A stretch of DNA of 64,000 bases from an uncultured Chloroflexia bacterium. Its GTDB lineage: Bacteria; Chloroflexota; Limnocylindria; QHBO01. Shown here one piece after another: positions 4,100 through 15,897 of the stretch; positions within the stretch are counted from its first letter, which is position 1; each line of letters begins with the position of its first letter. The position numbers and the translations under genes are program-made. Under the pieces are notes generated by a model. It saw nothing but the letters and a program-made list of their open reading frames with translations. It made no database searches and was not told the origin of the DNA. Where the stretch lies: the NCBI GenBank assembly GCA_963827475.1, contig CAWHAZ010000005.1:1-64000 (forward strand), given 5' to 3'.

Positions 4100-5261
4100 T
4101 CACGACCGGCGGCGGACGACTCCCAGGTTCGCCACGGCGAGGGCTCCGAGCGACGCGATCAGCAGCGCGGCGAAGCCAAGCGTGACCCACATGCCGCCGG
4201 TGGTGGACGGCGCGGTCGCGGCGTTCGGGAGGCTTGCCTGCGGCGTCCCGGTTCCGCCGCGACGGACTGCTCGACGGACTGCTCGACGGACTGCTCCACG
4301 GACTCCCCGATTGACTCCTCGATCGACGGGGGCGGCGGGCAATCCGAGATCGGGGTGGCGTCGTCCGGAAGGATGACGTCCTGCTGGTTCGACGTGATCG
4401 AAACGGAGCTCCGGCTGTGGAGCCACACATAGCTGAACGTGAAGCACGAATCCCCGTCGCCGAAGAGTTCCATGGCGTCGGTGAGGTTGATCGACGCTTC
4501 GGCAAAGGTCTTCGAATCAAGCTGCTGGCCCCCGAGGAAGTTCTGCGCGGCGGGGATGGGGGCGGCGTTCATCGCTCCCTGCACCAGGTTTGGCGGCGGG
4601 GACGGGCAGTTCGAGCCGGAGGCCCTGGTCCCGGCGAAGTCGAGCCACGCGCCCGCGTGCTCGTCGCCACTCCATCGGCATACTCCGAGGACCGGCGGGT
4701 CGACGCTGTACGTGATCAGCAGGTCACCGGCCGTCCGGGTCGGGACCTCGATCAGCCTGCCCGAATGGGTCTCGACCGTGGTCCGGTAGCCCGGCTCGCG
4801 CTGGTTGAGCTCGAACGCCAGGTGCGTGGTTCCGTTGTTCGACGCCCGGATGAAACCGAGGGCGAGGAAGCACATCACCCGTGCCGGGCTCCTGGGCCAC
4901 GTAGCCGCTGAGGATGTCGTACTTGTCCGAGCCGAAGGAACCAAAGTCGAACGTCCACGCGTCAGGATCCTCCTCGCTGCTGCCGGGGCCGAACTGCGAG
5001 TCGCTATTTCCGCTCGGGTTGTCCGGGAGGCTGTTGGTGATCCCGATGATGGACTGCCAGTCGAGCCGGTCGTTGCCCGCTCCGCTGCCATCCGAGTCGA
5101 CCTGGTTGCCGTCATAGCCCTCGAAGCAGCTGCCCGGCAGCGGCGTGCCCGGGGACGCGGGGCCATCGGGCGTGCAGAACAGCCGCAAACACCATGCCGG
5201 GCGAGAGGACGACGAGGGAGAACAGGGCGGCGCTTGCCACCAGCGCGAGCCGACGACGCAT
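4100..5261 (-). CDS. Secreted surface protein with LPNAA-TM-RRR C-terminal sorting-like tail (frameshifts)
   Basis: Signal MRRRLALVASAALFSLVVLSPG; globular domain (RLDWQS..ELNQ..RTAGDLLITY..FAEASINLT); tail SLPNAATAP..LGFAALLIASLGALAVANLGVVRRRS. Confidence 0.7.
4261..4327. repeat. 12-bp coding tandem repeat (GACGGACTGCTC x3 plus degenerate copies) encoding a SVEQ stalk
   Basis: gacggactgctc gacggactgctc gacggactgctc cacggactcccc; minus strand reads SIEESIGESVEQSVEQSVEQSV. Confidence 0.85.
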
Positions 5262-5286
5262 GACACTTCCTCGAGGGCGGGCGGTC

Positions 5287-5328
5287 CGATGGGCGCCTCG
5301 GGCCGGGGGCCGGGGCAGTGTACGGCCC
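5287..5328 (-). promoter_or_regulatory. Repeated upstream element copy 1 (TACACT -10-like box plus conserved 5' leader)
   Basis: Plus strand cgatgggcgcctcgggccgggggccggggcagtgtacggccc, near-identical to 7229-7266 and 8075-8115. Confidence 0.7.
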
Positions 5329-5372: not shown

Positions 5373-7202
5373 TTACCGGCGGCGAACGACCCCCAGGTTC
5401 GCCACAGCCAGGGCGCCGAGCGACCCGATGAGCAGGACGGCGAAGCCGAGCGCGATCCAGGAGCTCTCCGGTCCTGGCTGGGCCATCGCCGCGTCGGGCA
5501 GCGAGGGCGCCGGGGCTGGAGCGAAGGCGCCGACGATGACCGAGAACGTGCCGGTGGCGGTGTGGCCGACCGCATCGGTGGCGGTGCAGGTCACCGTCGT
5601 GGTGCCGACCGGGAAGGTCGAGCCCGAGGCCGGCAGGCAGGCCACGGTGGCCGCGCCACCCTGCTCGTCGGTACCGGTGGGCGGGGTGTAGGTCACCACC
5701 GCGCCGCGGCCGAGTTGGCCGGCACCGAGACGTTGGCATGGGCCGCCACGGTCGGCGGCTGGGCCTCGTAGGCGCCGATGTCGCAGGCGGCCGGACGGGG
5801 CATCCCGCGCTGGTCGAGGCCGCTGACCGGCGCTGCCGCACAGGTCGCACTCGTGCCCGTATCGATGGCCGGATTGCCGGCCACGAGCGCCAGGGCGATG
5901 GTCTGGGTCGGGCCGCCGTTGTTGGCCAGCCCGGCCGGGTCGAGCACGCCGGCGGGACCGGCGGCGAAGACGTTGTTCGTGCTGGTCACGGTCCCCCCCG
6001 GCTCGTTCGTGATCGCGGTTGGCAATTCGCCGACGAAGAGACTGTTCCTGACGGTCGCCGTGCCACCGTTGTCGATGCCGCCGCCAGTAGTGCTGGCCGA
6101 GTTCCCGCTGAACGTCGAGTTCGTAAGGGTCAGGCTGCCCAGGAAATGGTTCGCGATTCCGCCTCCGGACGTGGCTGAGTTCCCCTGGAGCGTGGTATTC
6201 ACCACGGTCAGGATGCCGCCTGGGTAGTTGGCGATCCCTCCGCCGGTGGCGCTGGAGGAGTTCCCGTTGATCGTGGAGCCGACGACGGTCAGCGTACCGC
6301 CGACCTCGTTGTTGATACCGCCTCCGTCCCAGTTGCTGGTCGAGTTCCCGCTGATGGTCGAGTTAGTGACGGTCACGTTCCCGCCGAAGGAGTTGGCGAT
6401 CCCGCCAGATCCACCGCTGGCCACGTTGTCGGCGATGACCGAATTCGTGACCGCAATCGTGCCCCCGACGTTGGTCATGCCGCCGCCGCCGCCGCTGGTG
6501 GCCGTGTTCTGGCTGACCGCGGAGCCGATGATGTCCAGCGTCCCGTGGTCGTTGAGGATGCCGGCGCCAAAGGTCGCCGTGTTCCCGAGGATCGTCGAGT
6601 TGGTGACGGTCAGCGTGCCGTGATTGTTGATGCCGCCACCGGCGTTGCCGGCCGTGTTGCCGCTGATCGGTCGAGTCGGTGACGGTCAGGGTCCCGTTGT
6701 TGAGGATACCGCCGCCGGGGCCGCCGGCAGTGTTGCCGCTGATGGTCGAGTCGGTGACGGTCAGGGTCCCGTCGTTGGCGATGCCACCGCCAGGGCCACC
6801 GGTCGAACCATTGGTCATCGTCAGCCCCGACAGAGTGACCGTGACCGACCCGACGTTGAATACCTGGAAGGCGCCGCCCCCGTTGACCGTGACCGCTCCA
6901 GCTCCCAAGATCGTGAGGTCGCTCGAGATGGCTGGGAGCGCCGACCCCACGGTGATCGTGCCGGCGACGCTGAACGTGATGACATCGGCGCCCGAGCCGG
7001 CAATGCACTCACCCGGAGCTGCCCCGGACGGGGCATCGGCGTTGGCCGCGGTGATCGCCTCGCGCAAAGTGCAGAACCCATCGTCGCCAGGTGCCGTGTC
7101 GGCCGTCGAGTTCACGGTGAGCGCCGCGGCGGCAACCGGAGTCGCGGTGAGGCCCATCAGCAGGCCAAGGATGATCAGGATCGTGGCGACTCGGGCGCGC
7201 AT
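5373..7202 (-). CDS. CSLREA-domain / right-handed beta-helix / choice-of-anchor Q / HYR surface protein with LPDAA-TM-RRR tail (frameshifts)
   Basis: VNSTAD..CTLREAITAAN; repeated NxGTLTVTxSTISGN..GGGI; LANNGGPTQT..DQRG..CDIGAYE; HYR SGSTFPVGTTTVTCTATD; tail LPDAA..LGALAVANLGVVRRR. Confidence 0.85.
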
Positions 7203-7228
7203 TGGCGGTTCCTCAAGGGGGAGCTGGC

Positions 7229-7266
7229 CGATGGAGCCTCGGGCCAAGGCCGGGGCAGTGTACGGC
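7229..7266 (-). promoter_or_regulatory. Repeated upstream element copy 2
   Basis: Plus strand cgatggagcctcgggccaaggccggggcagtgtacggc, upstream of the ATG at 7202. Confidence 0.7.
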
Positions 7267-7310
7267 GGGCAGCGTCTGCGCGGAAGGCCCGCCTCGGAAC
7301 CGAGCGGCTG

Positions 7311-8048
7311 CTACCGGCGGCGCACGACTCCCAGGTTAGCCACGGCTACCGACCCGAGGGTCCCGATCAGGAGGAGTCCGAAGCCGATCGCCGCGAGCGG
7401 GCTGCCGGTGGGCGGCGGCGCGGTTGCTGCGTTCGGCAGGCTCGAGGTTCCCGGAGTCGGCGGGTTGGGTAGGTCGTAGGTGATGGTCAGGACCGGTCCT
7501 AGCTCCTCAATAAACCCATCACCACAAACAAATGAGTCAAACGTCGTGACCGACTCGGGATCGGGTCGGATCGAGAATCCCGCCGAACCTGCGCTGATCG
7601 TGGCGGCTGTTACCAGGCTCGTCACGTCGTAGTCCGCAAGTGCACCGTTTGTAATCGGTGTGAAGAGGATTGGCGTGCCTGTGACCTGGATGTCCGGCTC
7701 CGTGATCGAGCCATCGCCCGCGTAGCCGTACATCGCGTGCTGAATGAAGGTGAACTGTGTGGACGCGTGGAGAGTGAGGGTCGCGCTGAGGACCGTGGCC
7801 TCCGGTGGGAGGTCGGTCAAGGGAAATTCGAGCGCGGAGCGGTATCGGTCAGTGTCGAAGTACGCACCGCTCGGGCAGCCAGATACTCCTTCGGTCCAGG
7901 GTCCCCCAAATAGCGAGTCAAATCCCTTGCCGATCCCGCCGTCGGCGTTCGCGATCGCGAGGCTGCCGCCCCCCGCCGACACCGGCGCCGCGGTGACGGC
8001 CATCAGCAGGCCGAGGATGATCAGGATCAGGGCGACGCGGGCGCGCAT
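7311..8048 (-). CDS. Secreted DNRLRE/CBM96-like protein with LPNAA-TM-RRR tail
   Basis: Signal MRARVALILIILGLLMAVTAAPVSA; RSALEFPLTDLPPEATVLSATLTL; PVLTITY; tail SLPNAATAP..AVANLGVVRRR. Confidence 0.75.
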   Translation of the reverse strand: MRARVALILIILGLLMAVTAAPVSAGGGSLAIANADGGIGKGFDSLFGGPWTEGVSGCPSGAYFDTDRYRSALEFPLTDLPPEATVLSATLTLHASTQFTFIQHAMYGYAGDGSITEPDIQVTGTPILFTPITNGALADYDVTSLVTAATISAGSAGFSIRPDPESVTTFDSFVCGDGFIEELGPVLTITYDLPNPPTPGTSSLPNAATAPPPTGSPLAAIGFGLLLIGTLGSVAVANLGVVRRR

Positions 8049-8147: not shown

Positions 8148-10088
8148 TCAGGCGGCGTTGCGCATGGACGGGATGAGCCAGCCGATCAGCCCGGCGGCGA
8201 CCGCCACCGCCCCACCCAGCATCAGGGTCCGGTCCGCCCCGATGATCCCGGCCAGGATGCCGGACACGGCCATGGCGGTGGCCATCACCCCGAACACCAG
8301 GGCCTGGCGCGACGTCACCACCCGCGCGAACAGGGCCTGCGGCGTCCGCTCCTGGAACAGGGTGATGTTCGGGATGACGAACGCCATGTTCGTCGCGCCG
8401 ATGAGGAAGAACAGGGCGATCGCGAGCACCGGATCGGTCACCAGGCCGACGACGATGAAGGTCACGCCCATGCCGATGAAGCCCGCGATCGCCATCGGTC
8501 CCTTCTTGGCGTCTCCGGCGAACCCACCGATGACGAGGCCGCCGACGATGCTGCCCAGCCCGATCGACGCCATAAGCAGCGAGTAATTCTCCGGAAAGCC
8601 GATGACCGACTGTGTCGAGCACCGACTGCGCGTAGAGGAGCGAGCAGGTGACCTCGGTCCCGACCGCGACCTGGGCCATGGTTGACACGAGCGTGTTCGC
8701 CCGCAGCTCCGCCTGGTGGACGAGGAACGAGATGCCCTCCCGCACGTCGCGCCACAGCTGACCGATGCCGAACGCGCCGGCGGCGCGTTCGTGGCGGGGC
8801 ACCTGCATGAGGACCAGGAACAGGGCGGAGATGAGGTACGTCCCGGAGTCGATCACGAACGCCGTGCCGATGATCCCGGCCAGGGCGGCGACCATCAGCC
8901 CGGCCAGGGGGTAGCCGATGAGGTCGGCCAGGGTCTCGGTCACGCTGGTCGCGCTGTTGGCGGGGAGGAGGTCCTCGCGGTCCACGATCTGGGGCACGAG
9001 CGCGTCCTTCGAGGGGCGGAACAGGAGCGACACGGTCGCCACCGCGAAGGCGACGAGGTAGACGAGCAGGATGTTCACGTTGAACGCGAGCGGGATGGTC
9101 AGCACCAGCGCGGCGCGGATGAGGTCCGCGGCGATCATCGTCCGGCGCCGGTCCCAGCGGTCCGCCAGGGCGCCGGCCCACGGGCCGAAGATCACGTTCG
9201 GGACGGCGATGGCGGCCATCGTGAAGCCCACGTCCAGCGGCGTGCCGCGGGTCGCGACCAGGAAGCCGAGGGCCACCTGGTGGATCCGGTCGCCCATCAG
9301 GCTGACCAGCTGGCCGCACCACAGCAGGGCGTAGTTGCGGTTGCCGGCGAGGCGGAGGTACGGCGACTGCGGCTCTCCTCCTCCTCGACCGCGACCCCGA
9401 TCCCCGGACCGGGCAGGACCGGCACCGGCTCGGCGGCGAGCGGCATGGCGGTGGCATAGGCGACGCCCAGCTGGAACTCGCCGGCGGGCATCGGTCGTGG
9501 CGGATTGGCGCCCAGCGCCACCGACATCCGGGTCGGCACCGACGGGCGGGTCATGGCCGCCGCGATGGCCCACACGATCCCGACCCACAGCAGGACGTCG
9601 CCGATGCTGATGACGTCGCGCAGGACCGGGATGGGGATGGGCACCACGTCGCCGAACATCCCGCCCTGCCGGACGAACTCCGCGGTCGAGTCCGCGGTCA
9701 GGACGATGTGGAACGGGTCGCCGGCGATGTCGGCCAGGGACAGCCCGGCGGCGAACAGGGCGCCCTCGAAGACCGGCATCTTGCCCTGGTGGAGGATGAC
9801 CGCGATCGTGTTCAGGGTGACCCCGATGGCCGCCACCTGGAGCCCGGGCACCTTCCAGTTGCGGTACAGCCAGATCACGATCAGGACGTAGGTCACCGGC
9901 AGGCCCCAGGCCGCCGCCACGTCCGCCCCACCGGAATCGGTGGTGATCGCCAGCCCGGCCGCCAGGCGCACGGCGAGGGCGATGCCCAGCAGCCAGATCC
10001 ATTTCAGGCGGAGGTCCGCCAGGCGGGGGAGCTGCCCTCCGGCCAGGGCCCCGAGGACGAGGCCGACCAGGATGGCGCTAAGGAGCAT
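8148..10088 (-). CDS. DUF5317-family membrane domain fused to an MFS exporter (DHA3/EntS-like); frameshifts about 9375 and 8610
   Basis: N-term GGQLPRLADLRLKW..LN..GKMPV..H..GDVVPIP..VISIGDVLL (DUF5317); then NRNYALLWCGQLVSLMGD, GALADRWDRRRTMIAAD (MFS motif A), FQERTP..ARV; no separate start codon before MFS TM1. Confidence 0.75.
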
Positions 10089-10089
10089 C

Positions 10090-11499
10090 TTCCGAGGCGA
10101 GTGCTGGCCTCGAGGTCGGGCTCCCTTCGTCGGTGCCGGTGGCGACGGTCACGCTCGGACCGGTCGGCGGCGGCCACCAGGTCGTCCTGGTGGAGCATGG
10201 TCGGCAGCTCGTCGGGCCGCTCCGGCGGGCGATCCAGGATGTCGCGGCTCAGCCCGACCAGGACCGGCACGATCTCCGGGTCGAACTGGAGGCCGGAGTA
10301 CTTCTCGAGCTCGGCAATGGCCTGCTCGTGGGTCAGCGCGGTGAGCCGATACGGGCGGGAGCTGGTCATCGCCTCGTAGGCGTCGGCCACGGTCAGGATC
10401 CGGGCGCCGAGCGGGATGTCGTGCGTACTCCAGCGCCGTCCGGGTAGCCGCTGCCGTTGATCCACTCGTGGTGGGCCCGGATGAGCGGCGCCTCCGGCGC
10501 GAGCTGGTTGGCGGGCGCCACGATCTCCGCCCCGATGGTCGGGTGCTGGTTCATGAGGATCCGCTCCTCGCGGTTCAGCGGCCCCGGCTTGAGCAGGATG
10601 TTGTCGCGGATCCCGATCTTGCCCACGTCATGCAGTAACCCCGCCCACTTGATCTTCTCGACCTCCGACTCGGGCAGGCTCATGACCCGGCACATCGCCT
10701 CCGAGATGTGGCTCACCCGGTTCGAATGACCGCGGGTGTACCGATCCCGGGCGTCCACCGCGTTGGCCAGGGCCCCGATCGTCTGCTCGAACAGCTCGCG
10801 GGTCTCGACGTAGCGGTGATAAGCCATGCGAGTCGTGAACAGCGGGATCGCGAACAGCGCGGTCGCCCACCAGCCGACTCCGTTCGGCAGCAGGAATACC
10901 TGCGCCATCAGCCACCCCACAGGCGCCAGGCCGAGGAGGTTCGGAGCAATCGCGCCGATATCTCGCGCAAAGACTGTTCGAACCGAAGCTCCGGTCCTGA
11001 GCGACACAGCAACAACCGCGAGCGACGCACTGATGAGGGAGTAGACGAGCCCAGCGATGAGTGAGTCCCGCGAACTGGACGAGCGACGACTGCAACGGTG
11101 GCAAGCCGGACGCCAAGTCGGCGATCAGCTCGAAGGGGATGCCGGCCACGACGGCGGCTATGACCAGGGCGCGTGGTTGAAGAGCGTCCCGTACCACGGG
11201 ACTTCCCCGCTCAATTCCCTGGAGTCCGTGGTCCCAATCGCCGCCACTATCCCGCCAGCGGTCGGACCACCAAGCACGATGGAAGCCAAAAGCGGCGCGA
11301 AACTGACCGAGGCCACGGTCCCGGTTGGCAGGCGCACAGGCAGGGCGCTGGCGACCAGCGTCAGGATGGTCCAGTAGGCGATCCCCGCGGGACCGCCGAT
11401 CTCTTCCCGGATGGGGAAGAAAACCGAAACCGCCGCGAGCGCAATCGCTGCGGCGGCTACTGTAAGGCCAACAAGGAGCTGGACTCTCGCGGTCACCAA
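10090..11499 (-). CDS. Membrane-sensor HD-GYP c-di-GMP phosphodiesterase (frameshifts; 3' end approximate)
   Basis: Multi-TM N-terminus (LPVRLP..SVSFAP..LFNHA); AVDARDRYTRGHSNRV, LLHDVGKIG, HPTIGAEI, HHEWINGSGYP, IPLGARILTVADAYEAMTSSRPYR, QFDPEIV. Confidence 0.9.
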
Positions 11500-11548
11500 G
11501 CTCCAACCCTAGCCTTGCGAGTCAGATTGCGTCAACCGCGACGCCAGG

Positions 11549-11647
11549 CTACCAACCTTTGACGGAAGCTCCTCCGGCGAGCGCCAAAAGAACTAAGGCC
11601 ACGACTGGCAGCAGGCGGACGAAGATGCGATGTCTCACTGTGTCCAT
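11549..11647 (-). CDS. 32-aa signal-peptide-like precursor MDTVRHRIFVRLLPVVALVLLALAGGASVKGW (putative peptide pheromone)
   Basis: Hand translation, ATG 11647 to TAG 11549; basic N-region, hydrophobic core, polar C-terminal ASVKGW; directly upstream of the HD-GYP gene on the same strand. Confidence 0.8.
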   Translation of the reverse strand: MDTVRHRIFVRLLPVVALVLLALAGGASVKGW

Positions 11648-11662
11648 CGCGGTCTCTTCGTC

Positions 11663-11689
11663 TTACCAGCCCTTAATTGAGGCTTTCAC
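11663..11689 (-). CDS. 8-aa mini-ORF MKASIKGW
   Basis: GTG AAA GCC TCA ATT AAG GGC TGG TAA with GAGGG 8 nt upstream; C-terminus matches the neighbouring precursor (ASVKGW) but uses different codons. Confidence 0.5.
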   Translation of the reverse strand: MKASIKGW

Positions 11690-11734
11690 AGAAGGTGCCC
11701 TCTTCTGACGAGGAACCGACCTATCCGGTCTGGA

Positions 11735-11808
11735 TGGTCGGTTGCACTACTTGCTCCCCACGCGCCTAAGTGCCCAACGTTCAGCGCGTGGATCTTTGCT
11801 TCCGGATC
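11735..11808 (-). ncRNA. Cyclic di-GMP-II riboswitch aptamer
   Basis: Minus strand GGAAGCAAAGATCCACGCGCTGAACGTTGGGCACTTAGGCGCGTGGGGAGCAAGTAGTGCAACCGACC: 5' GGAA, stem CCACGCGC/GCGCGTGG, loop TTGGGCACTT, pseudoknot GCAC/GTGC, 3' AGTAGTGCAACCGACC, as in the known class II aptamer; lies upstream of an HD-GYP gene. Confidence 0.88.
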
Positions 11809-11809
11809 G

Positions 11810-14800
11810 TTATCGACCAGTACGAAAGTACTGGCGTTGTGGTGGGACCCTAGCGCCCAGTGGCGGGCAAGTCAAGTCTTTTCGCCAAGAAGTCAACAAC
11901 GAATGGACCGACGCATGGGCATTTCCGCCGAGCTCGGAGAGAGCACTATGGACCTCCTGTGACGCGGGCACCTGCAATTCCTCTTCGACTGCCGTCGCGA
12001 ACTCGCTGATGAGTCGTCGTGCCGCAGCCCGACGACCCATCTCGTGCAGTTTTCTAGCCATCGCCACATGAGCGGATTCGTCGAACGGGTCGAACTCGGT
12101 CAGCACCTCCGCGGCCCGGAGCGAGACATGCGCCGGGATGTCCGGAGTGCTTGCGACTGCGATTTCTAGGAGGGGCTCCCGGACCTCAGCGGCCACCGAC
12201 ATCTGTATCCCTGCTGCCCAGTCCTCATACCGAAGGTCAGCGAGAAACTCGCCGCGTATGAGGGAAAGCATGGCGATAGCTGCCCGGCGTCGCTCCTGGG
12301 CACTTGTGGCACCTTGGAGCAGAGCTGAGAGGCGTCGGACTTCGTCGAGATCGCTGACGACCAACTCCGGGTCGAACGCGAGAGATTCGCCGCTGCTCAC
12401 AACGTACTGTGGTCTGTCCGGATCCTTTGAGCCGGAATTGAGATGCCGGCGAAGCTGAAAGACGGCCTGATTCAGGTTGTTTACGCCACCCGCTGGATCG
12501 TGGTCTGGCCAGAGAATCTCCATAGCCATCTCTCGAGTGAGCGTCCGATGTCGATTCGCGACTAGCAGGCCCAACAGCAGTCGGAGCCGCTTCTTGTCGA
12601 TGGTGATCTCAGGTCCGTCCCAGTCGCCACGATGGACGCTGAGCGGCCCGAAGGCTCTCACGTAGAGCCGAGCAGCGGTGCTCCTCAGGATCTCCCTGCG
12701 GACTTGCGCGACGTCTTCGCCGGCGCACTCACGAAGTAGTCCGGCCGTCTCGGCGTTCCCACGTGACCGCACCAATGCGAGAGCTTCCGCCCGCTCGGAT
12801 CCGTCAAGAGTGGGAAGAATCTCGACTAGTACCGGCATCCAAAAGGTCAGGTCCCCAGCCGCGATTCGGAGGAGTTGGGCTACATGGCCGCTCGTAGCCA
12901 AATGCTCTGCAAAGGGCGCGAAGCGTCGAAGCCACCAACGGAGATACGGTATAGCCCCGAATCGCTCCGCGCCCGCCAGAGCTCGCGAAGCGTGCACGCC
13001 GGCGTTCGCGGAATCGTGCTCTATCAGAAGCGGAGTGAGTTGTACGAGGCCGCAAGCCGCCATAAAGCGCGCACCACGCTCCTCCCAAGATTTCAGTTGC
13101 TCAAGCGCTGTCGCACACTCGCCGGTGCATGAGTTTCGCGCGTGAGCTGCGAGGGCCAGGGCAGCGGATGTGCTCGCGGACAATCGCGGGTCTGGGTCGA
13201 GCCGGCGCAATTTGACGCTCGCCAAATCTAGGTCATCCTGGCTCGCTCCTCCGAGGTAGTAGGCGCAGATGAGCAGCGCGAGAGAAGGCTCCTCAAGGCC
13301 GCCGAGGATTTCCCGCTTGGAGAGGATCCGTCGCAGCAGGCGAGTCGCCTCGCTGAATTCCCCTCGCTGGAGCAGTACGCAAGCAAGGCCAAACTCCGCC
13401 TCGGCATGTGGTCGCGGCCACCTCCTTGTCCTGACGATTCCCTGTTGAGCGACTACTTCGGCTCGCCCCACATCCGCCACCGCAAGGAGGGTCTCCACGA
13501 AATCAGCGTTGTCTCCGAAAGGACTGCTTGGGATGGCACGCCAAAACCTGTCTGCCTCCTCGAAGTTCGCAAGGCTCTCAGTCAGCCGGCCGAGCCACCG
13601 CTGAACCAAGCCGAGGTTGTGATGACCGATTGCGGCGTAGTGCATGAGACCGCGCGACCTTGCTTCGTGCACAAGCTCTTCGCAGTCCCGCTCGGTCCGC
13701 TCCATTGACTCGAGCCAGGTCTCAGTGATCGCGAGGTTTCCTCGGAGTCGCAGCCTGGTCTCAAAGTCGTCAGGCCCGGCGAGGGTCAAGCCTCGCCGGG
13801 CAGCCTGGACGCTCTCGACGGCCTGGCCGCGGTAATTGAAGTGCGTACTCAACTTTAGTTCCGCCAGCGCGGCCATCCTGCGATCACCCTTTCTCTCGAA
13901 GAAGATCCGTCCCTTCTCGAGAGCTTCACGGGCAGAGTCCCACTCTCCACGTATGGTGCCGAGTGACTCACCGTGCAGCAGCGATAGGCGCGCGTTGTCT
14001 TTGATCGTCTTTGTTGGCAGCTGGCTAAGCCATTCGTCTATAAGACCAAGTCGGCCCTCGCCCACGACGGATTCCCCGTATTTGGCTATGAGCCGCGCTG
14101 CTTGGCGCTGAAGGCCCGCACGGAGGTAATGGTGGATGGCCTCCGGCCATTGGAGCGTCGTCTCGTAGTAGGAGGCTGCGTGAATATGGAGGCCGATAAC
14201 CTCGGGGTCCGACCGTTCCGCTGCGAGGCGCCGCTCCAAGAAATCCCGGAACAACCCGTGGTAGCGATACATTTTCTCGTCCACGTCCAGACGGTTCGTG
14301 AAGAGGCCTCGCTGCTCGAGATCAGCCAATAGGAGCGAACCGTCCCGCACTCCACTTAGTCGTTCGGCAAGTTCCGCCGTGATCTGCTGGAGGATTGATG
14401 TACACAGCAAGAAATTCCTTGTTTCATCGCTCTGCTGGTCGAGGACTTCTTCTGCCAAGAAGGCAAACAGGTCGTTGTCGGTCGCCGCGGTAATCGACTC
14501 GATGAATGAGCTGCGTTCCGCTGGGCGGCTCTTGTCTCGCAACGAGACCTCGACGAGCTGAAGGCTGGCAGCCCACCCTTCTGTTCGGCGGTCGAGCTCA
14601 ATCAGCTCGCCCGGATCAAGAGGGTCGGAATAGACATCGCGGAAGAGAGCGTCAATTTCAGGTTCCCTAAAGCGCAGGGCATCAGTCCGCAGCTCGCCGT
14701 AGCCACCGTGTGTGCGAAAGCGAGCGAACTGGAGTCGGGGCCTTGCACGTGACAGGAAGACGAACCGGCAGGTTGGAGGCGCGTCGCGCAAGATCTGATT

Positions 14801-15265
14801 CCAGAGCCCGCGGACTTCGGTCTGGCTCGTTACGAAATGCCAGTCATCGATGATGAATGTGCACGGCTCAGTGAGCCGCTCGTGCATCTCAGCTAGTAGA
14901 AATGCGGCCACTCCAGGGCGGCTCGATCCCGGGCCGCCAAGTTGGCGGAGCATGCTGTGCGCCTGATGTCCGAATCCAGGGTGGCGTTGGGCAATCGCTT
15001 CGATGAGGTAACTGATGTGGAGTGACCAGTCACGGTCATTGCGGTCGAGCTTGTACCAGTAGCACGGGAATTCCACCTCGCGCTCCCACTGCCAAAGCAG
15101 CGTGGTCTTTCCATAACCGGCATCTGCCGCGACGACTATGGCCCGGCAGTCGGCGTGGTCATTCAGCCAGTCGATAAGGCGCGCACGACGAAGCGTGGGG
15201 GTCACATAGTGGGGCGACGTGACCTTGTTGTGGATGAGGGGATAGGCGGTATTGATCTCGCCCAA
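11810..15265 (-). CDS. MalT-like STAND NTPase - TPR - winged HTH/BTAD (SARP-type) transcriptional regulator, about 1150 aa
   Basis: GGAGGG RBS and TTG at 15265; RRARLIDWL, Walker A ADAGYGKTTLL, Walker B FIIDDWH, TEGWAASL, YRYHGLFRDFL, helical repeats, AFGPL..LWPD..LRRHL, GEFLAD..DPFDESAH. Confidence 0.88.
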   Translation of the reverse strand: MGEINTAYPLIHNKVTSPHYVTPTLRRARLIDWLNDHADCRAIVVAADAGYGKTTLLWQWEREVEFPCYWYKLDRNDRDWSLHISYLIEAIAQRHPGFGHQAHSMLRQLGGPGSSRPGVAAFLLAEMHERLTEPCTFIIDDWHFVTSQTEVRGLWNQILRDAPPTCRFVFLSRARPRLQFARFRTHGGYGELRTDALRFREPEIDALFRDVYSDPLDPGELIELDRRTEGWAASLQLVEVSLRDKSRPAERSSFIESITAATDNDLFAFLAEEVLDQQSDETRNFLLCTSILQQITAELAERLSGVRDGSLLLADLEQRGLFTNRLDVDEKMYRYHGLFRDFLERRLAAERSDPEVIGLHIHAASYYETTLQWPEAIHHYLRAGLQRQAARLIAKYGESVVGEGRLGLIDEWLSQLPTKTIKDNARLSLLHGESLGTIRGEWDSAREALEKGRIFFERKGDRRMAALAELKLSTHFNYRGQAVESVQAARRGLTLAGPDDFETRLRLRGNLAITETWLESMERTERDCEELVHEARSRGLMHYAAIGHHNLGLVQRWLGRLTESLANFEEADRFWRAIPSSPFGDNADFVETLLAVADVGRAEVVAQQGIVRTRRWPRPHAEAEFGLACVLLQRGEFSEATRLLRRILSKREILGGLEEPSLALLICAYYLGGASQDDLDLASVKLRRLDPDPRLSASTSAALALAAHARNSCTGECATALEQLKSWEERGARFMAACGLVQLTPLLIEHDSANAGVHASRALAGAERFGAIPYLRWWLRRFAPFAEHLATSGHVAQLLRIAAGDLTFWMPVLVEILPTLDGSERAEALALVRSRGNAETAGLLRECAGEDVAQVRREILRSTAARLYVRAFGPLSVHRGDWDGPEITIDKKRLRLLLGLLVANRHRTLTREMAMEILWPDHDPAGGVNNLNQAVFQLRRHLNSGSKDPDRPQYVVSSGESLAFDPELVVSDLDEVRRLSALLQGATSAQERRRAAIAMLSLIRGEFLADLRYEDWAAGIQMSVAAEVREPLLEIAVASTPDIPAHVSLRAAEVLTEFDPFDESAHVAMARKLHEMGRRAAARRLISEFATAVEEELQVPASQEVHSALSELGGNAHASVHSLLTSWRKDLTCPPLGARVPPQRQYFRTGR
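11847..11875 (-). promoter_or_regulatory. Sigma70-type promoter for the riboswitch/peptide/HD-GYP operon
   Basis: TTGACT (11875-11870), 17-nt spacer, TAGGGT (11852-11847), about 40 nt upstream of the aptamer. Confidence 0.65.
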
Positions 15266-15365
15266 CGAATGACCCTCCGATGGCGGGCACTTTACGGGCG
15301 TGCGCTCCGCCAGATGGCAGCATACGGCCGTTCGACTTACCAGCCAATTAGTTGAGGCGGAACTC

Positions 15366-15897
15366 GTGAGGGCGTGGATCGGGCTGGGCGGCAATCTCGA
15401 AGGGTCGCGAGCGGCGCTCGTATCGGCCCTGGACTCGCTCGCCGATTTCGGCACGATCGGACCGATCTCGAGCTTGTACCGATCCGCCCCGCGAGAGCGG
15501 ACCGATCAGCCTGATTTCCTCAACGCCGCGGTGGTCGCTGGAGACCGAGCTCGAGCCGCGACCGCTGCTGGTCGAGCTGAAGGCGATCGAGCGGCGACTC
15601 GGCCGCGACCCGTTTGGCCATCGGTATGGGCCGCGCCTGGTGGACCTGGACCTGCTGGCGATCGAGGGGCGCTGCGTGGACGACGAGCCGGACCTGGTGG
15701 TGCCGCACCCGAAGCTGGCCGAGCGGCGGTTCGCGCTGGAGCCGCTGGCCGAGCTGGATCCGAACCTGAAGCCGTGGGCGGAGTGCCCCGGTGACCGGCG
15801 CGAGCTGACCGTGGCGGAGGCGCTGGCGGCGGTGATGGATCAGGAGGTCGAGGTGATCGAGGGACCGGGCTGGGCGGGGATCACCGAGCCCCAGTAG
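15366..15897 (+). CDS. folK: 2-amino-4-hydroxy-6-hydroxymethyldihydropteridine diphosphokinase (frameshift about 15540)
   Basis: AWIGLGGNL, SSLYRSAP..QPDFLNAA, GPRLVDLDLL, LVVPHPKLAERRFALEPL. Confidence 0.9.

Follow-up and report, generated by a model that had tools for sequence, protein, structure and literature searches.

What does a riboswitch for the second messenger cyclic di-GMP (c-di-GMP) control when the first genes behind it are two mini-genes, and what do their products do beside a membrane enzyme predicted to degrade the same messenger? This question is raised by a cassette on the minus strand of positions 1–64,000 of contig CAWHAZ010000005.1 (assembly GCA_963827475.1), the 64-kb stretch from an uncultured Chloroflexia bacterium that we analysed and refer to as the window. 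HD-GYP domains hydrolyse c-di-GMP, and class II riboswitches sense it. Read 5' to 3' on the minus strand, the cassette comprises a STAND (signal transduction ATPase with numerous domains) regulator, the promoter P1, a c-di-GMP-II riboswitch, two mini-open reading frames (ORFs; sORF1 and sORF2), a MASE9–HD-GYP gene and a gene joining DUF5317 to a transporter of the major facilitator superfamily (MFS). All six elements listed in the initial annotation, which had counted promoter and aptamer as one, were found on this strand at the positions given in Table 1. We take the locus to be a true c-di-GMP signalling operon of the class Ca. Limnocylindria (Chloroflexota), across which the cassette is conserved; the cassette is real, new and interesting, and its mechanism is only partly resolved.

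The explanation that we consider best as a whole, and that we put forward tentatively from gene context, is a c-di-GMP-induced, peptide-tuned degradation of c-di-GMP by a membrane module. A sigma-70-type promoter, probably activated by the MalT-type STAND/tetratricopeptide repeat (TPR)/SARP regulator encoded upstream, would drive a leader containing a 5' hairpin and the class-II c-di-GMP aptamer, and bound c-di-GMP would switch on both transcription and the translation of sORF1. The products would be a soluble peptide of 8–10 residues from sORF1, a mini-protein of about 30 residues from sORF2, the MASE9–HD-GYP phosphodiesterase and, last, DUF5317 fused to a DHA3-type MFS protein. The sORF2 product would sit N-in in the membrane through a single helix, with the short tail A-G-G-A-S-x-[KR]-G-[WF] outside; from this position it would set the phosphodiesterase activity together with DUF5317 and the intramembrane MASE9 sensor, sORF1 providing a free copy of its C-terminal epitope. 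The net effect would be negative feedback.

Table 1 Features of the cassette and related elements (window coordinates unless a locus is named)
Feature	Position	Strand	Remarks
STAND regulator with MalT-type NTPase, TPR sensor and a predicted OmpR/SARP-type winged helix at the C-terminus	11810-15454	-	maximal ORF, true start and stop uncertain
Promoter P1	11847-11896	-	-35 TTGACT 11870-11875, 17-nt spacer, -10 TAGGGT 11847-11852; read from sequence
Conserved 5' stem-loop/palindrome CCAGTACTTTCGTACTGG	11817-11834	-	between P1 and aptamer; leader alignment
c-di-GMP-II riboswitch aptamer (RF01786)	11729-11812	-	57.3 bits against a gathering score of 53.5; E 4.4e-10; model positions 1-84
Terminator-like hairpin CCGACCAUCC..GGAU-A-GGUCGG with U-containing tail	11708-11741	-	ligand-free minimum free energy (MFE) fold and alifold consensus
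Near-invariant hairpin CAGAAGAGGGCACCUUCUG	11689-11707	-	includes GGGCAC, a copy of the aptamer loop, and the Shine-Dalgarno sequence of sORF1; family f1 leaders
sORF1	11663-11689	-	8 codons, GTG AAA GCC TCA ATT AAG GGC TGG TAA, reads (M)KASIKGW
sORF2	11549-11647	-	32 codons, reads MDTVRHRIFVRLLPVVALVLLALAGGASVKGW
Possible internal promoter P2	11506-11535	-	TTGACG, 18 nt, TAGGGT; inferred from sequence reading only
Membrane HD-GYP phosphodiesterase (predicted)	10078-11499	-	MASE9 ~10837-11373; HD_5/HD-GYP ~10273-10770
DUF5317–MFS_3 fusion	8148-10088	-	start overlaps HD-GYP end; DUF5317 9564-10013; DHA3/EntS-like MFS ~8148-9340
Hypervariable recombined block	10915-11900	-	leader, sORF1, sORF2 and ~195 residues of the MASE9 domain; window against locus L034
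Sigma-54-dependent response regulator in relatives	L023:1-1113, L024:1-1107, L026:9268-10299, L028:2-856; also L118, L121, L123

Conservation of the cassette was computed directly. Among 41 related genomes, DUF5317 is present in 30 and RF01786 in 22, and 20 places, in 19 of the 41 genomes (one place in the unpublished genome G021), have RF01786 1.7–2.3 kb upstream of a same-strand DUF5317. A scan retaining one genome per species gave 80 loci, 21 of which stop within 1.6 kb 5' of the match; all 59 loci with enough flank carry the aptamer, 58 by a regular expression for its core and one, L057, by the covariance model (53.6 bits). The aptamer lies at a constant distance of about 1.7 kb upstream of DUF5317 across loci. 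Behind the 58 aptamers found by regular expression, an HD-GYP gene follows in every case, an MFS part in 54 of the 54 loci with enough sequence, and, of the 52 that extend far enough upstream, 47 have a co-directional regulator there. The HD-GYP gene is intact in 15 relatives (462–531 amino acids), and the DUF5317–MFS open frames in relatives mostly measure 620–875 amino acids. A few short cassette contigs are labelled Steroidobacteraceae, Actinomycetes, Dormiibacterota or Patescibacteria; these labels are probably binning errors, because the copies are 50–58% identical to those of Limnocylindria.

The core of the cassette extends beyond the riboswitch-bearing loci. Families f2 and f5 of the same class (our labels) lack RF01786 and keep the order small ORF, HD-GYP, DUF5317, MFS, as separate genes in L118 and L119 and in fused form in L120–L123; their small ORF resembles sORF2 (for example MRRILMAVAALAALVLGGGAGVSGI), and there is no sORF1. 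In L118 and L121, from families f5 and f2, respectively, a c-di-AMP receptor gene (PF06153) ends just 5' of this array. Across the phylum, DUF5317 was found in 48 of 151 sampled Chloroflexota genomes. At 18 loci from 16 other families, HD_5 is a same-strand neighbour in 10, including one HD-GYP–MFS fusion; a STAND/TPR/BTAD regulator stands directly upstream in six, a MASE9 histidine kinase is present at one and kinase fragments at another, and three have none of these. A small ORF like sORF2 was recognised at 12 of the 18 loci by pattern and at two more by eye, compared with 1 of 18 on the antisense strand and 0 of 90 shuffles; its N-terminus is basic, about 19 hydrophobic residues follow, and the tail resembles [AS]G[AG][DPNS]..W. 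Absence of a conserved small ORF upstream of homologous loci had been named beforehand as speaking against a peptide system; such an ORF does sit there, in Limnocylindria and in these 14 of 18 loci. The phylum-wide core consists of DUF5317, a small ORF for a single-helix protein and a MASE9 sensor that is usually joined to HD-GYP.

The association of DUF5317 with c-di-GMP enzymes and riboswitches, suggested initially as a neighbourhood check, is seen both in Limnocylindria and in other Chloroflexota families. In one other family (L126:3800-4470, minus strand), a c-di-GMP-II-GAG riboswitch, equipped with a strong terminator, stands before two identical small ORFs in tandem, of 31 codons each (MKWATLKM...AAGADSRWA), which are followed by HD-GYP and DUF5317. 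Class-I c-di-GMP riboswitches lie directly 3' of standalone DUF5317 genes at L114:7387-7466 (RF03167) and L117:6832-6917 (RF01051), and these DUF5317 genes themselves follow genes for an HD-GYP protein and a GAF–GGDEF–EAL protein. At L135:2169-4709 (minus strand), HD-GYP is fused directly to MFS_3 with DUF5317 as the next gene, an alternative fusion of the three parts. A second RF01786 copy in a relative (L032, genome G008, contig C8, oriented 5239-5323) precedes an open frame of more than 1898 amino acids and is unrelated to the cassette.

Both mini-ORFs are coding genes, as judged from their sequence signatures. The sORF1 pattern M-x(3-9)-[KR][GSPA][WFY]-stop occurs in 54 of the 58 loci, against 0 of 58 reverse complements and 2 of 580 shuffles; the sORF2 pattern [AG]GG[AG][SGT]x[KRQ]x[WFLY]-stop occurs in 48 of 58, against 0 of 58 and 0 of 580, the other ten loci having a variant ending ..AAGAGLRGL or indels. 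In 32 unique 99-nt sORF2 sequences, diversity at codon positions 1, 2 and 3 is 0.41, 0.27 and 0.58, and the ratio of nonsynonymous to synonymous polymorphism (pN/pS) is 0.56 in frame compared with 1.04 and 1.71 in the shifted frames; for sORF1 it is 0.43. A core Shine-Dalgarno sequence precedes sORF1 in 54 of 54 and sORF2 in 28 of 46 cases (background 0.13). Consistent with translation of both frames, a 247-nt contig from a rhizosphere RNA library, a source that is no proof of transcription, spans 11497-11742 and differs from the window by four substitutions in sORF2, all synonymous and in third position, and by a single I>V change in sORF1.

The sORF2 product is built from a basic N-terminus, one hydrophobic helix, the segment A-x-A-G-G-A-S and a C-terminal VKGW. 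A22, A24 and G26 are invariant in its alignment, and most of the conservation falls on these positions and the tail. No conserved cysteine was found in the sORF1 and sORF2 alignments, and searches of Pfam and NCBIfam with the small ORFs returned nothing meaningful. By sequence, the sORF2-like family is new.

The two mini-ORFs and the sensor domain next to them form a mosaic block. Our comparison of the window with L034 reveals that the sORFs are 45–55% and the membrane domain 67–77% identical, whereas the regulator, the catalytic part and DUF5317–MFS are 93–100% identical; the window block is instead of the L035 type, with 85% identity over the sORFs. The pair L039/L040 follows the same pattern (catalytic part 94, DUF5317–MFS 89, sORF 46 and membrane domain 65). 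In all six close-backbone pairs, the membrane domain is 59–78% identical, as compared with 89–98% for the catalytic part and 89–96% for DUF5317–MFS. Two sORF types exist within one genus, type A (MKASVKGW with ..AGGASVKGW) and type B (MxExTKGW with ..AAGAGLRGL), and their distribution does not track the backbone. The sORFs and the HD-GYP membrane domain are exchanged together on near-identical backbones, which is the behaviour expected of a peptide/sensor pair, and the swapped blocks resemble a pherotype organisation.

The initial annotation had read the cassette as an analogue of agr, in which a precursor would be matured and exported by DUF5317–MFS and sensed by the HD-GYP membrane domain. 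The agr system (AgrD/AgrB/AgrC/AgrA) likewise has a small precursor-like ORF beside membrane proteins, a hypervariable block of peptide and sensor, and autoregulation. Its defining features are missing here: Pfam scans of the cassette proteins gave no AgrB-type peptidase, histidine kinase or response regulator, and the peptides have no conserved cysteine. In addition, hydrolysis of c-di-GMP would be the output here, and a riboswitch contributes to the input. What gains strength is a looser notion, that of a peptide pairing with the membrane sensor of the HD-GYP protein.

Closest to that annotation is a model in which the peptides leave the cell and act as autocrine or quorum signals sensed outside by MASE9–HD-GYP, with sORF2 passing through Sec and being cleaved after A-x-A, sORF1 leaving through the MFS protein, and the variable blocks serving as pherotypes. 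Several features speak for it. The conservation of sORF2 lies in A-x-A-G-G-A and the C-terminal tail around a variable, signal-peptide-like hydrophobic core; both peptides share their motif exactly at the C-terminus; the transporter belongs to the DHA3/EntS exporter family; two close backbone pairs each hold one type A and one type B block, and genome G010 holds one cassette of each type. A signal-peptidase site is compatible with the invariant A22 and A24 before GG in 32 Limnocylindria sequences. Outside this class, however, the tail often reads G-A-P, and a proline at +1 bars cleavage by signal peptidase I; the hydrophobic segment there is about 19–21 residues long, the length of a membrane helix. 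No processing enzyme was found among the cassette proteins, and MFS and sORF1 are absent from many loci that retain the small ORF, DUF5317 and the sensor. Furthermore, MASE9 has short outside loops only according to its describers, who propose that ligand binding occurs within the membrane (10.1101/2021.11.05.467447, as far as the accessible part of that preprint goes). On balance, we regard this model, and with it the peptides as secreted signals, as doubtful.

A related proposal keeps the pairing and places it in the membrane: the mini-peptides may be the cognate ligands of the intramembrane MASE9 sensor, autocrine or intercellular, with specificity types arising from joint swaps of peptide and sensor block, DUF5317 acting as a peptide-handling membrane component and peptide production gated by the riboswitch and the STAND regulator. 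This would be a new class of peptide signalling with c-di-GMP hydrolysis in place of phosphotransfer as output, a possibility to which we give limited credence.

The sensor itself has the make-up of a MASE9–HD-GYP protein. HD_5 was matched on separate pieces of the window (Pfam, 9e-19 and 2e-12) and on an intact relative (2e-35), and the window translation contains the HD and GYP motifs LLHDVGK and GSGYPDG. MASE9 (PF20972) forms the N-terminal domain in 13 of 14 relatives at E<=0.01, with 25.3 bits in L023 against a cut-off of 24.3 and 18.5 bits, below the cut-off, in L027. The same domain architecture is found in TM1467 of T. maritima and HdgA of S. venezuelae; by comparison, a small-ORF family and DUF5317 flank the gene here and MASE9 is hypervariable, and the parts of the preprint accessible to us mention no partners, small ORFs or riboswitches (10.1101/2021.11.05.467447). 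Beyond this defining preprint, our search of the MASE9 literature found nothing relevant.

DUF5317 (PF17248) was recognised at 81.3 bits, and also at 82.8 bits, against a cut-off of 25. The part that follows has 12 transmembrane helices and matches MFS_3 (87 bits), MFS_1 (88 bits), an EntS-like NCBIfam model and TIGR00900 (175 bits, below the subfamily cut-off of 319.6). Among the longer homologs, the best 120 of 360 all join PF17248 with MFS. In the AF2 model of DUF5317 (pLDDT 78.5), a small beta-rich insert separates four helices from a fifth. A Foldseek search against the PDB gave no match at E<=0.001, a wide VIA-align search reached a best Z of 7.2, which is background level, and a profile search against the PDB yielded nothing better than ExsF (E 0.13). 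All clusters retrieved from the ESM Atlas were of DUF5317 itself, most often from Actinomycetota; tblastn against a plasmid collection found no match, and the literature searched does not mention DUF5317. A role as a signal-peptidase-II-like or other peptidase, raised by a motif resemblance, was unsupported by the fold and profile searches. Maturation of the peptide by DUF5317, as initially suggested, thus receives no backing, with neither a fold match nor a peptidase signature found. Export by the MFS part is likewise not a core step, since many loci with the small ORF, DUF5317 and the sensor do without MFS and sORF1.

Co-folding lends weak support to an association of sORF2 with DUF5317–MFS and the MASE9 domain. 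This set scored 0.50. Exchanging DUF5317–MFS gave the best control, 0.25, and the two controls with another partner each scored 0.00. Of the 80 solved complexes and 110 mismatched pairs used for calibration, 58 and 2, respectively, attained the mark; just 7 of the 80 solved complexes scored 0.60 or less, as did both mismatches that passed. At least 91% of contacts recur between runs, with a pLDDT of 71 for the partner. In our preferred reading, sORF2 would reside in the membrane and act on MASE9 and DUF5317. MgrB with PhoQ and AcrZ with AcrB offer a parallel, a single-helix protein of about 30 residues co-encoded with, and probably binding, a multi-pass sensor or transporter; here the family is new, paired with a helix-less mini-ORF of the same C-terminus and linked to DUF5317 across the phylum.

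The leader RNA would account for the proposed c-di-GMP dependence. RF01786 is the sole Rfam match in the window and the sole copy of this family in the 1.92-Mb, 7-contig genome, and the central stem of the aptamer covaries in 32 aligned sequences. Upstream, the GTAC of the CCAGTACTTTCGTACTGG palindrome is invariant in 32 of 32 aligned leaders, with variation in the flanking stem pairs; this element could be a stabilising 5' hairpin or an operator. Downstream, the 5' arm of the terminator-like hairpin consists of the aptamer's conserved 3' strand CCGACC and the 3' strand of the P1 helix, so that nucleotides are shared between both structures, and the inner stem varies by clade with pairing preserved. 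At least five T within 8 nt follow this hairpin in 36 of 58 loci and four T in a further 14. Because aptamer and hairpin compete for the same nucleotides, we infer an ON switch, in which bound c-di-GMP raises transcription, and the feedback loop through the riboswitch that had been proposed initially agrees with this geometry.

A further layer may act on sORF1. In the MFE fold, the aptamer's GUGC pairs with GCAC of the CAGAAGAGGGCACCUUCUG hairpin and CCUC pairs with the Shine-Dalgarno GAGG. The GGGCAC in this hairpin could be a decoy of the aptamer loop, and since the aptamer GUGC pairs with this copy and the Shine-Dalgarno sequence is itself paired, the fold suggests that c-di-GMP also controls the translation of sORF1. 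These features allow an alternative in which sORF1, and perhaps sORF2, serves RNA-level control through translational coupling, Rho protection or hairpin opening, without any peptide signal, sORF2 otherwise being a generic small subunit of DUF5317–MFS. Such a role would agree with the sORF1 start in a near-invariant hairpin with the aptamer-loop decoy, with its stop in a hairpin at many loci, with the short gap to the sORF2 start (median 20 nt, range 8–33) and with the DNA-level fixation of the terminal sORF1 codons; the fall of the co-fold score to 0.25 with DUF5317–MFS replaced fits a subunit, again weakly. By comparison, the sORF1 C-terminus remains [KR][GSPA][WFY] in families f1 and f3 despite differing RNA, the small ORF is retained at loci without any MFS, and the sORF block is swapped with the sensor domain and not with the transporter. 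We therefore hold purely RNA-level control to be unlikely and retain the peptide-tuned module as our preferred reading.

In comparison with other c-di-GMP-II riboswitches, such as the one before pilA1 of Clostridioides difficile, which is reportedly an ON switch, the leader shares the aptamer, a terminator-type platform, the inferred ON polarity and a link to genes of c-di-GMP physiology. It differs in that two mini-ORFs are the first genes controlled, that the operon encodes a c-di-GMP phosphodiesterase and so closes a feedback, and that an extra 5' hairpin and an aptamer-loop decoy in the ribosome-binding site are added. No paper linking Limnocylindria with c-di-GMP was found in the literature searched, and, among the papers listed and as judged by their entries, neither the literature on c-di-GMP-II riboswitches and HD-GYP nor that on c-di-GMP, riboswitches and small ORFs contained such an operon or other relevant work.

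The regulator upstream has the N-terminal P-loop NTPase and the TPR/SUPR sensor of a MalT-type STAND protein. In the window, Pfam reports TPR_MalT, Trans_reg_C (26.4 bits, cut-off 26.2) and NPHP3_N, a weak NACHT-like P-loop, and a GYGKT Walker A motif is visible in the translation; the regulator of L027 matches the NCBIfam MalT model NF003420 over residues 35–456 (1e-76; 258.7 bits, below the equivalog cut-off of 537). BTAD, not reported by Pfam in the window regulator, scores 44.5 bits in L031 and is clear in regulators from six other families. The overlap of the regulator ORF with the promoter may be an artefact of the maximal ORF call. P1 keeps its -35 and -10 elements in the leader alignments of relatives, and a second TTGACT at 11891-11896, 21 nt 5' of the P1 -35, may be a site for the regulator. 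The possible promoter P2 ends 9 nt 5' of the HD-GYP GTG start and is kept in part of family f1. Many f1 loci have an inverted repeat, GTCAA-N7-9-TTGAC, about 40–60 nt upstream of the P1 -35 (TTGACTT), and in other families tandem direct repeats of 11–12 nt precede the -10 of the small-ORF promoter; both are candidate binding sites of the STAND/SARP regulator by sequence.

This neighbourhood also invites a model like RRNPP systems, in which the TPR domain of the adjacent STAND regulator is the peptide receptor and riboswitch-gated sORF1 is an intracellular ligand coupling c-di-GMP to transcription. In PlcR-PapR, NprR-NprX and Rap-Phr, a TPR regulator gene is followed by a co-directional small ORF whose product is hydrophobic at the N-terminus and ends in a conserved peptide. 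The arrangement here is similar: a TPR regulator lies immediately 5' of the small ORFs in 47 of 52 loci, it stands directly 5' of small ORF and DUF5317 in the six other-family loci, where direct repeats precede the -10, and the conserved portion of each peptide is a free C-terminus. The regulator, however, is a MalT-type STAND ATPase of about 1150 residues with a probable SARP-type DNA-binding end that does not vary with the peptide, lying outside the variable block and being 95–100% identical where the peptides are 45–55% identical; families f2 and f5 hold sORF2 without an adjacent STAND regulator, and no oligopeptide importer lies nearby. We consider a regulator-bound peptide extremely improbable and assign the regulator, in the feedback reading, the more modest role of probable activator.

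Several observations weigh against the peptide-tuned module. The last codons of sORF1 are near-fixed at the nucleotide level (AAG 51/53, GGC 40/53), with sORF2 using many synonymous codons, and RNA constraints therefore probably contribute to sORF1 conservation; moreover, a purely membrane-resident role leaves unexplained why the helix-less sORF1 keeps the same C-terminus. A consensus scan of 11400–12000 flagged neither P1 nor P2 nor the riboswitch hairpin, its sole match being an unrelated weak hairpin inside sORF2, and the window's own U-tail TTCCTCGT is weak, the scan calling no terminator there. Joint exchange of peptide and sensor is blurred by the pairs L081–L101 and L058–L095, in which the sORF block is 93% and 84% identical though the membrane domain is 74% and 64% identical, and by a partial Mantel analysis that did not separate sORF–membrane domain covariation (0.37) from sORF–DUF5317–MFS covariation (0.30). 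Our fold and sequence searches with DUF5317 found no relative of known function, and the co-fold result reaches the level of weak support with no interface reported. Finally, both large genes are frameshifted in the window assembly, and the HD-GYP gene has no uninterrupted frame there.

These frameshifts raise the question of whether the cassette is decaying in this genome. The HD-GYP gene changes frame near 11172, 10433/10424 and 10165 and occupies at least three frames, and DUF5317–MFS contains two frameshifts, as a pseudogene locus would. Against such decay, an amino-acid identity of 80–95% to relatives is maintained across the breaks, and in contigs from four other, Illumina-based sequencing runs the additional bases that the window has at 10165, 10424 and 10433 are missing and one more T is present at 11172; these contigs were placed on the window at >=90% likeness, and the runs share 22–25% of the sampled 31-mer words of the stretch. 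Unrelated genes of the window break frame equally, among them HPPK at 15300-15794 (plus strand, profile positions 2–54 of 116) and a gene at 6363-7247 (minus strand), so that the whole assembly looks indel-rich, which would affect any gene call in the window. The close relatives point to long-read metagenome-assembled genomes, and in a homopolymer test the indel contexts were not clearly homopolymeric. Taken together, a decaying locus is very unlikely; the frameshifts are probably assembly errors, or private lesions, and not a property of the system.

To our knowledge, c-di-GMP enzymes with membrane sensor domains are abundant and their signals almost all unknown. The locus offers an entry to the orphan domains MASE9 and DUF5317, as a three-part membrane module with a small single-helix protein, and to a family of small proteins that gene callers skip and that is conserved across Chloroflexota. 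Its riboswitch has an unusual target, mini-ORFs placed first, one with a ribosome-binding site that copies the aptamer loop. The natural type A and type B peptide/sensor variants on near-identical backbones provide a built-in experiment in ligand–receptor matching. Should the peptides prove to be signals, second-messenger and peptide signalling would be joined in uncultured soil bacteria; should they be ligands of MASE9, this would give DUF5317 and MASE9 a first function and show that an abundant, uncultured class of soil Chloroflexota communicates by peptides.

Two further features adjoin the cassette. Downstream of the MFS gene in the window, 6363-8048 (minus strand) encodes two secreted-looking proteins with near-identical signal peptides (MRARVA.ILIILGLLM); they have no Pfam match, one contains glycine-rich beta-helix-like repeats, and the pair was not seen 3' of MFS in the relatives examined. 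Directly 3' of DUF5317–MFS in several relatives, and not in the window, lies instead a gene for a sigma-54-dependent response regulator with REC, AAA+ and HTH_8 domains and, in one case, a weak VpsR-domain match (Table 1). Some sigma-54-dependent response regulators of this class bind c-di-GMP.

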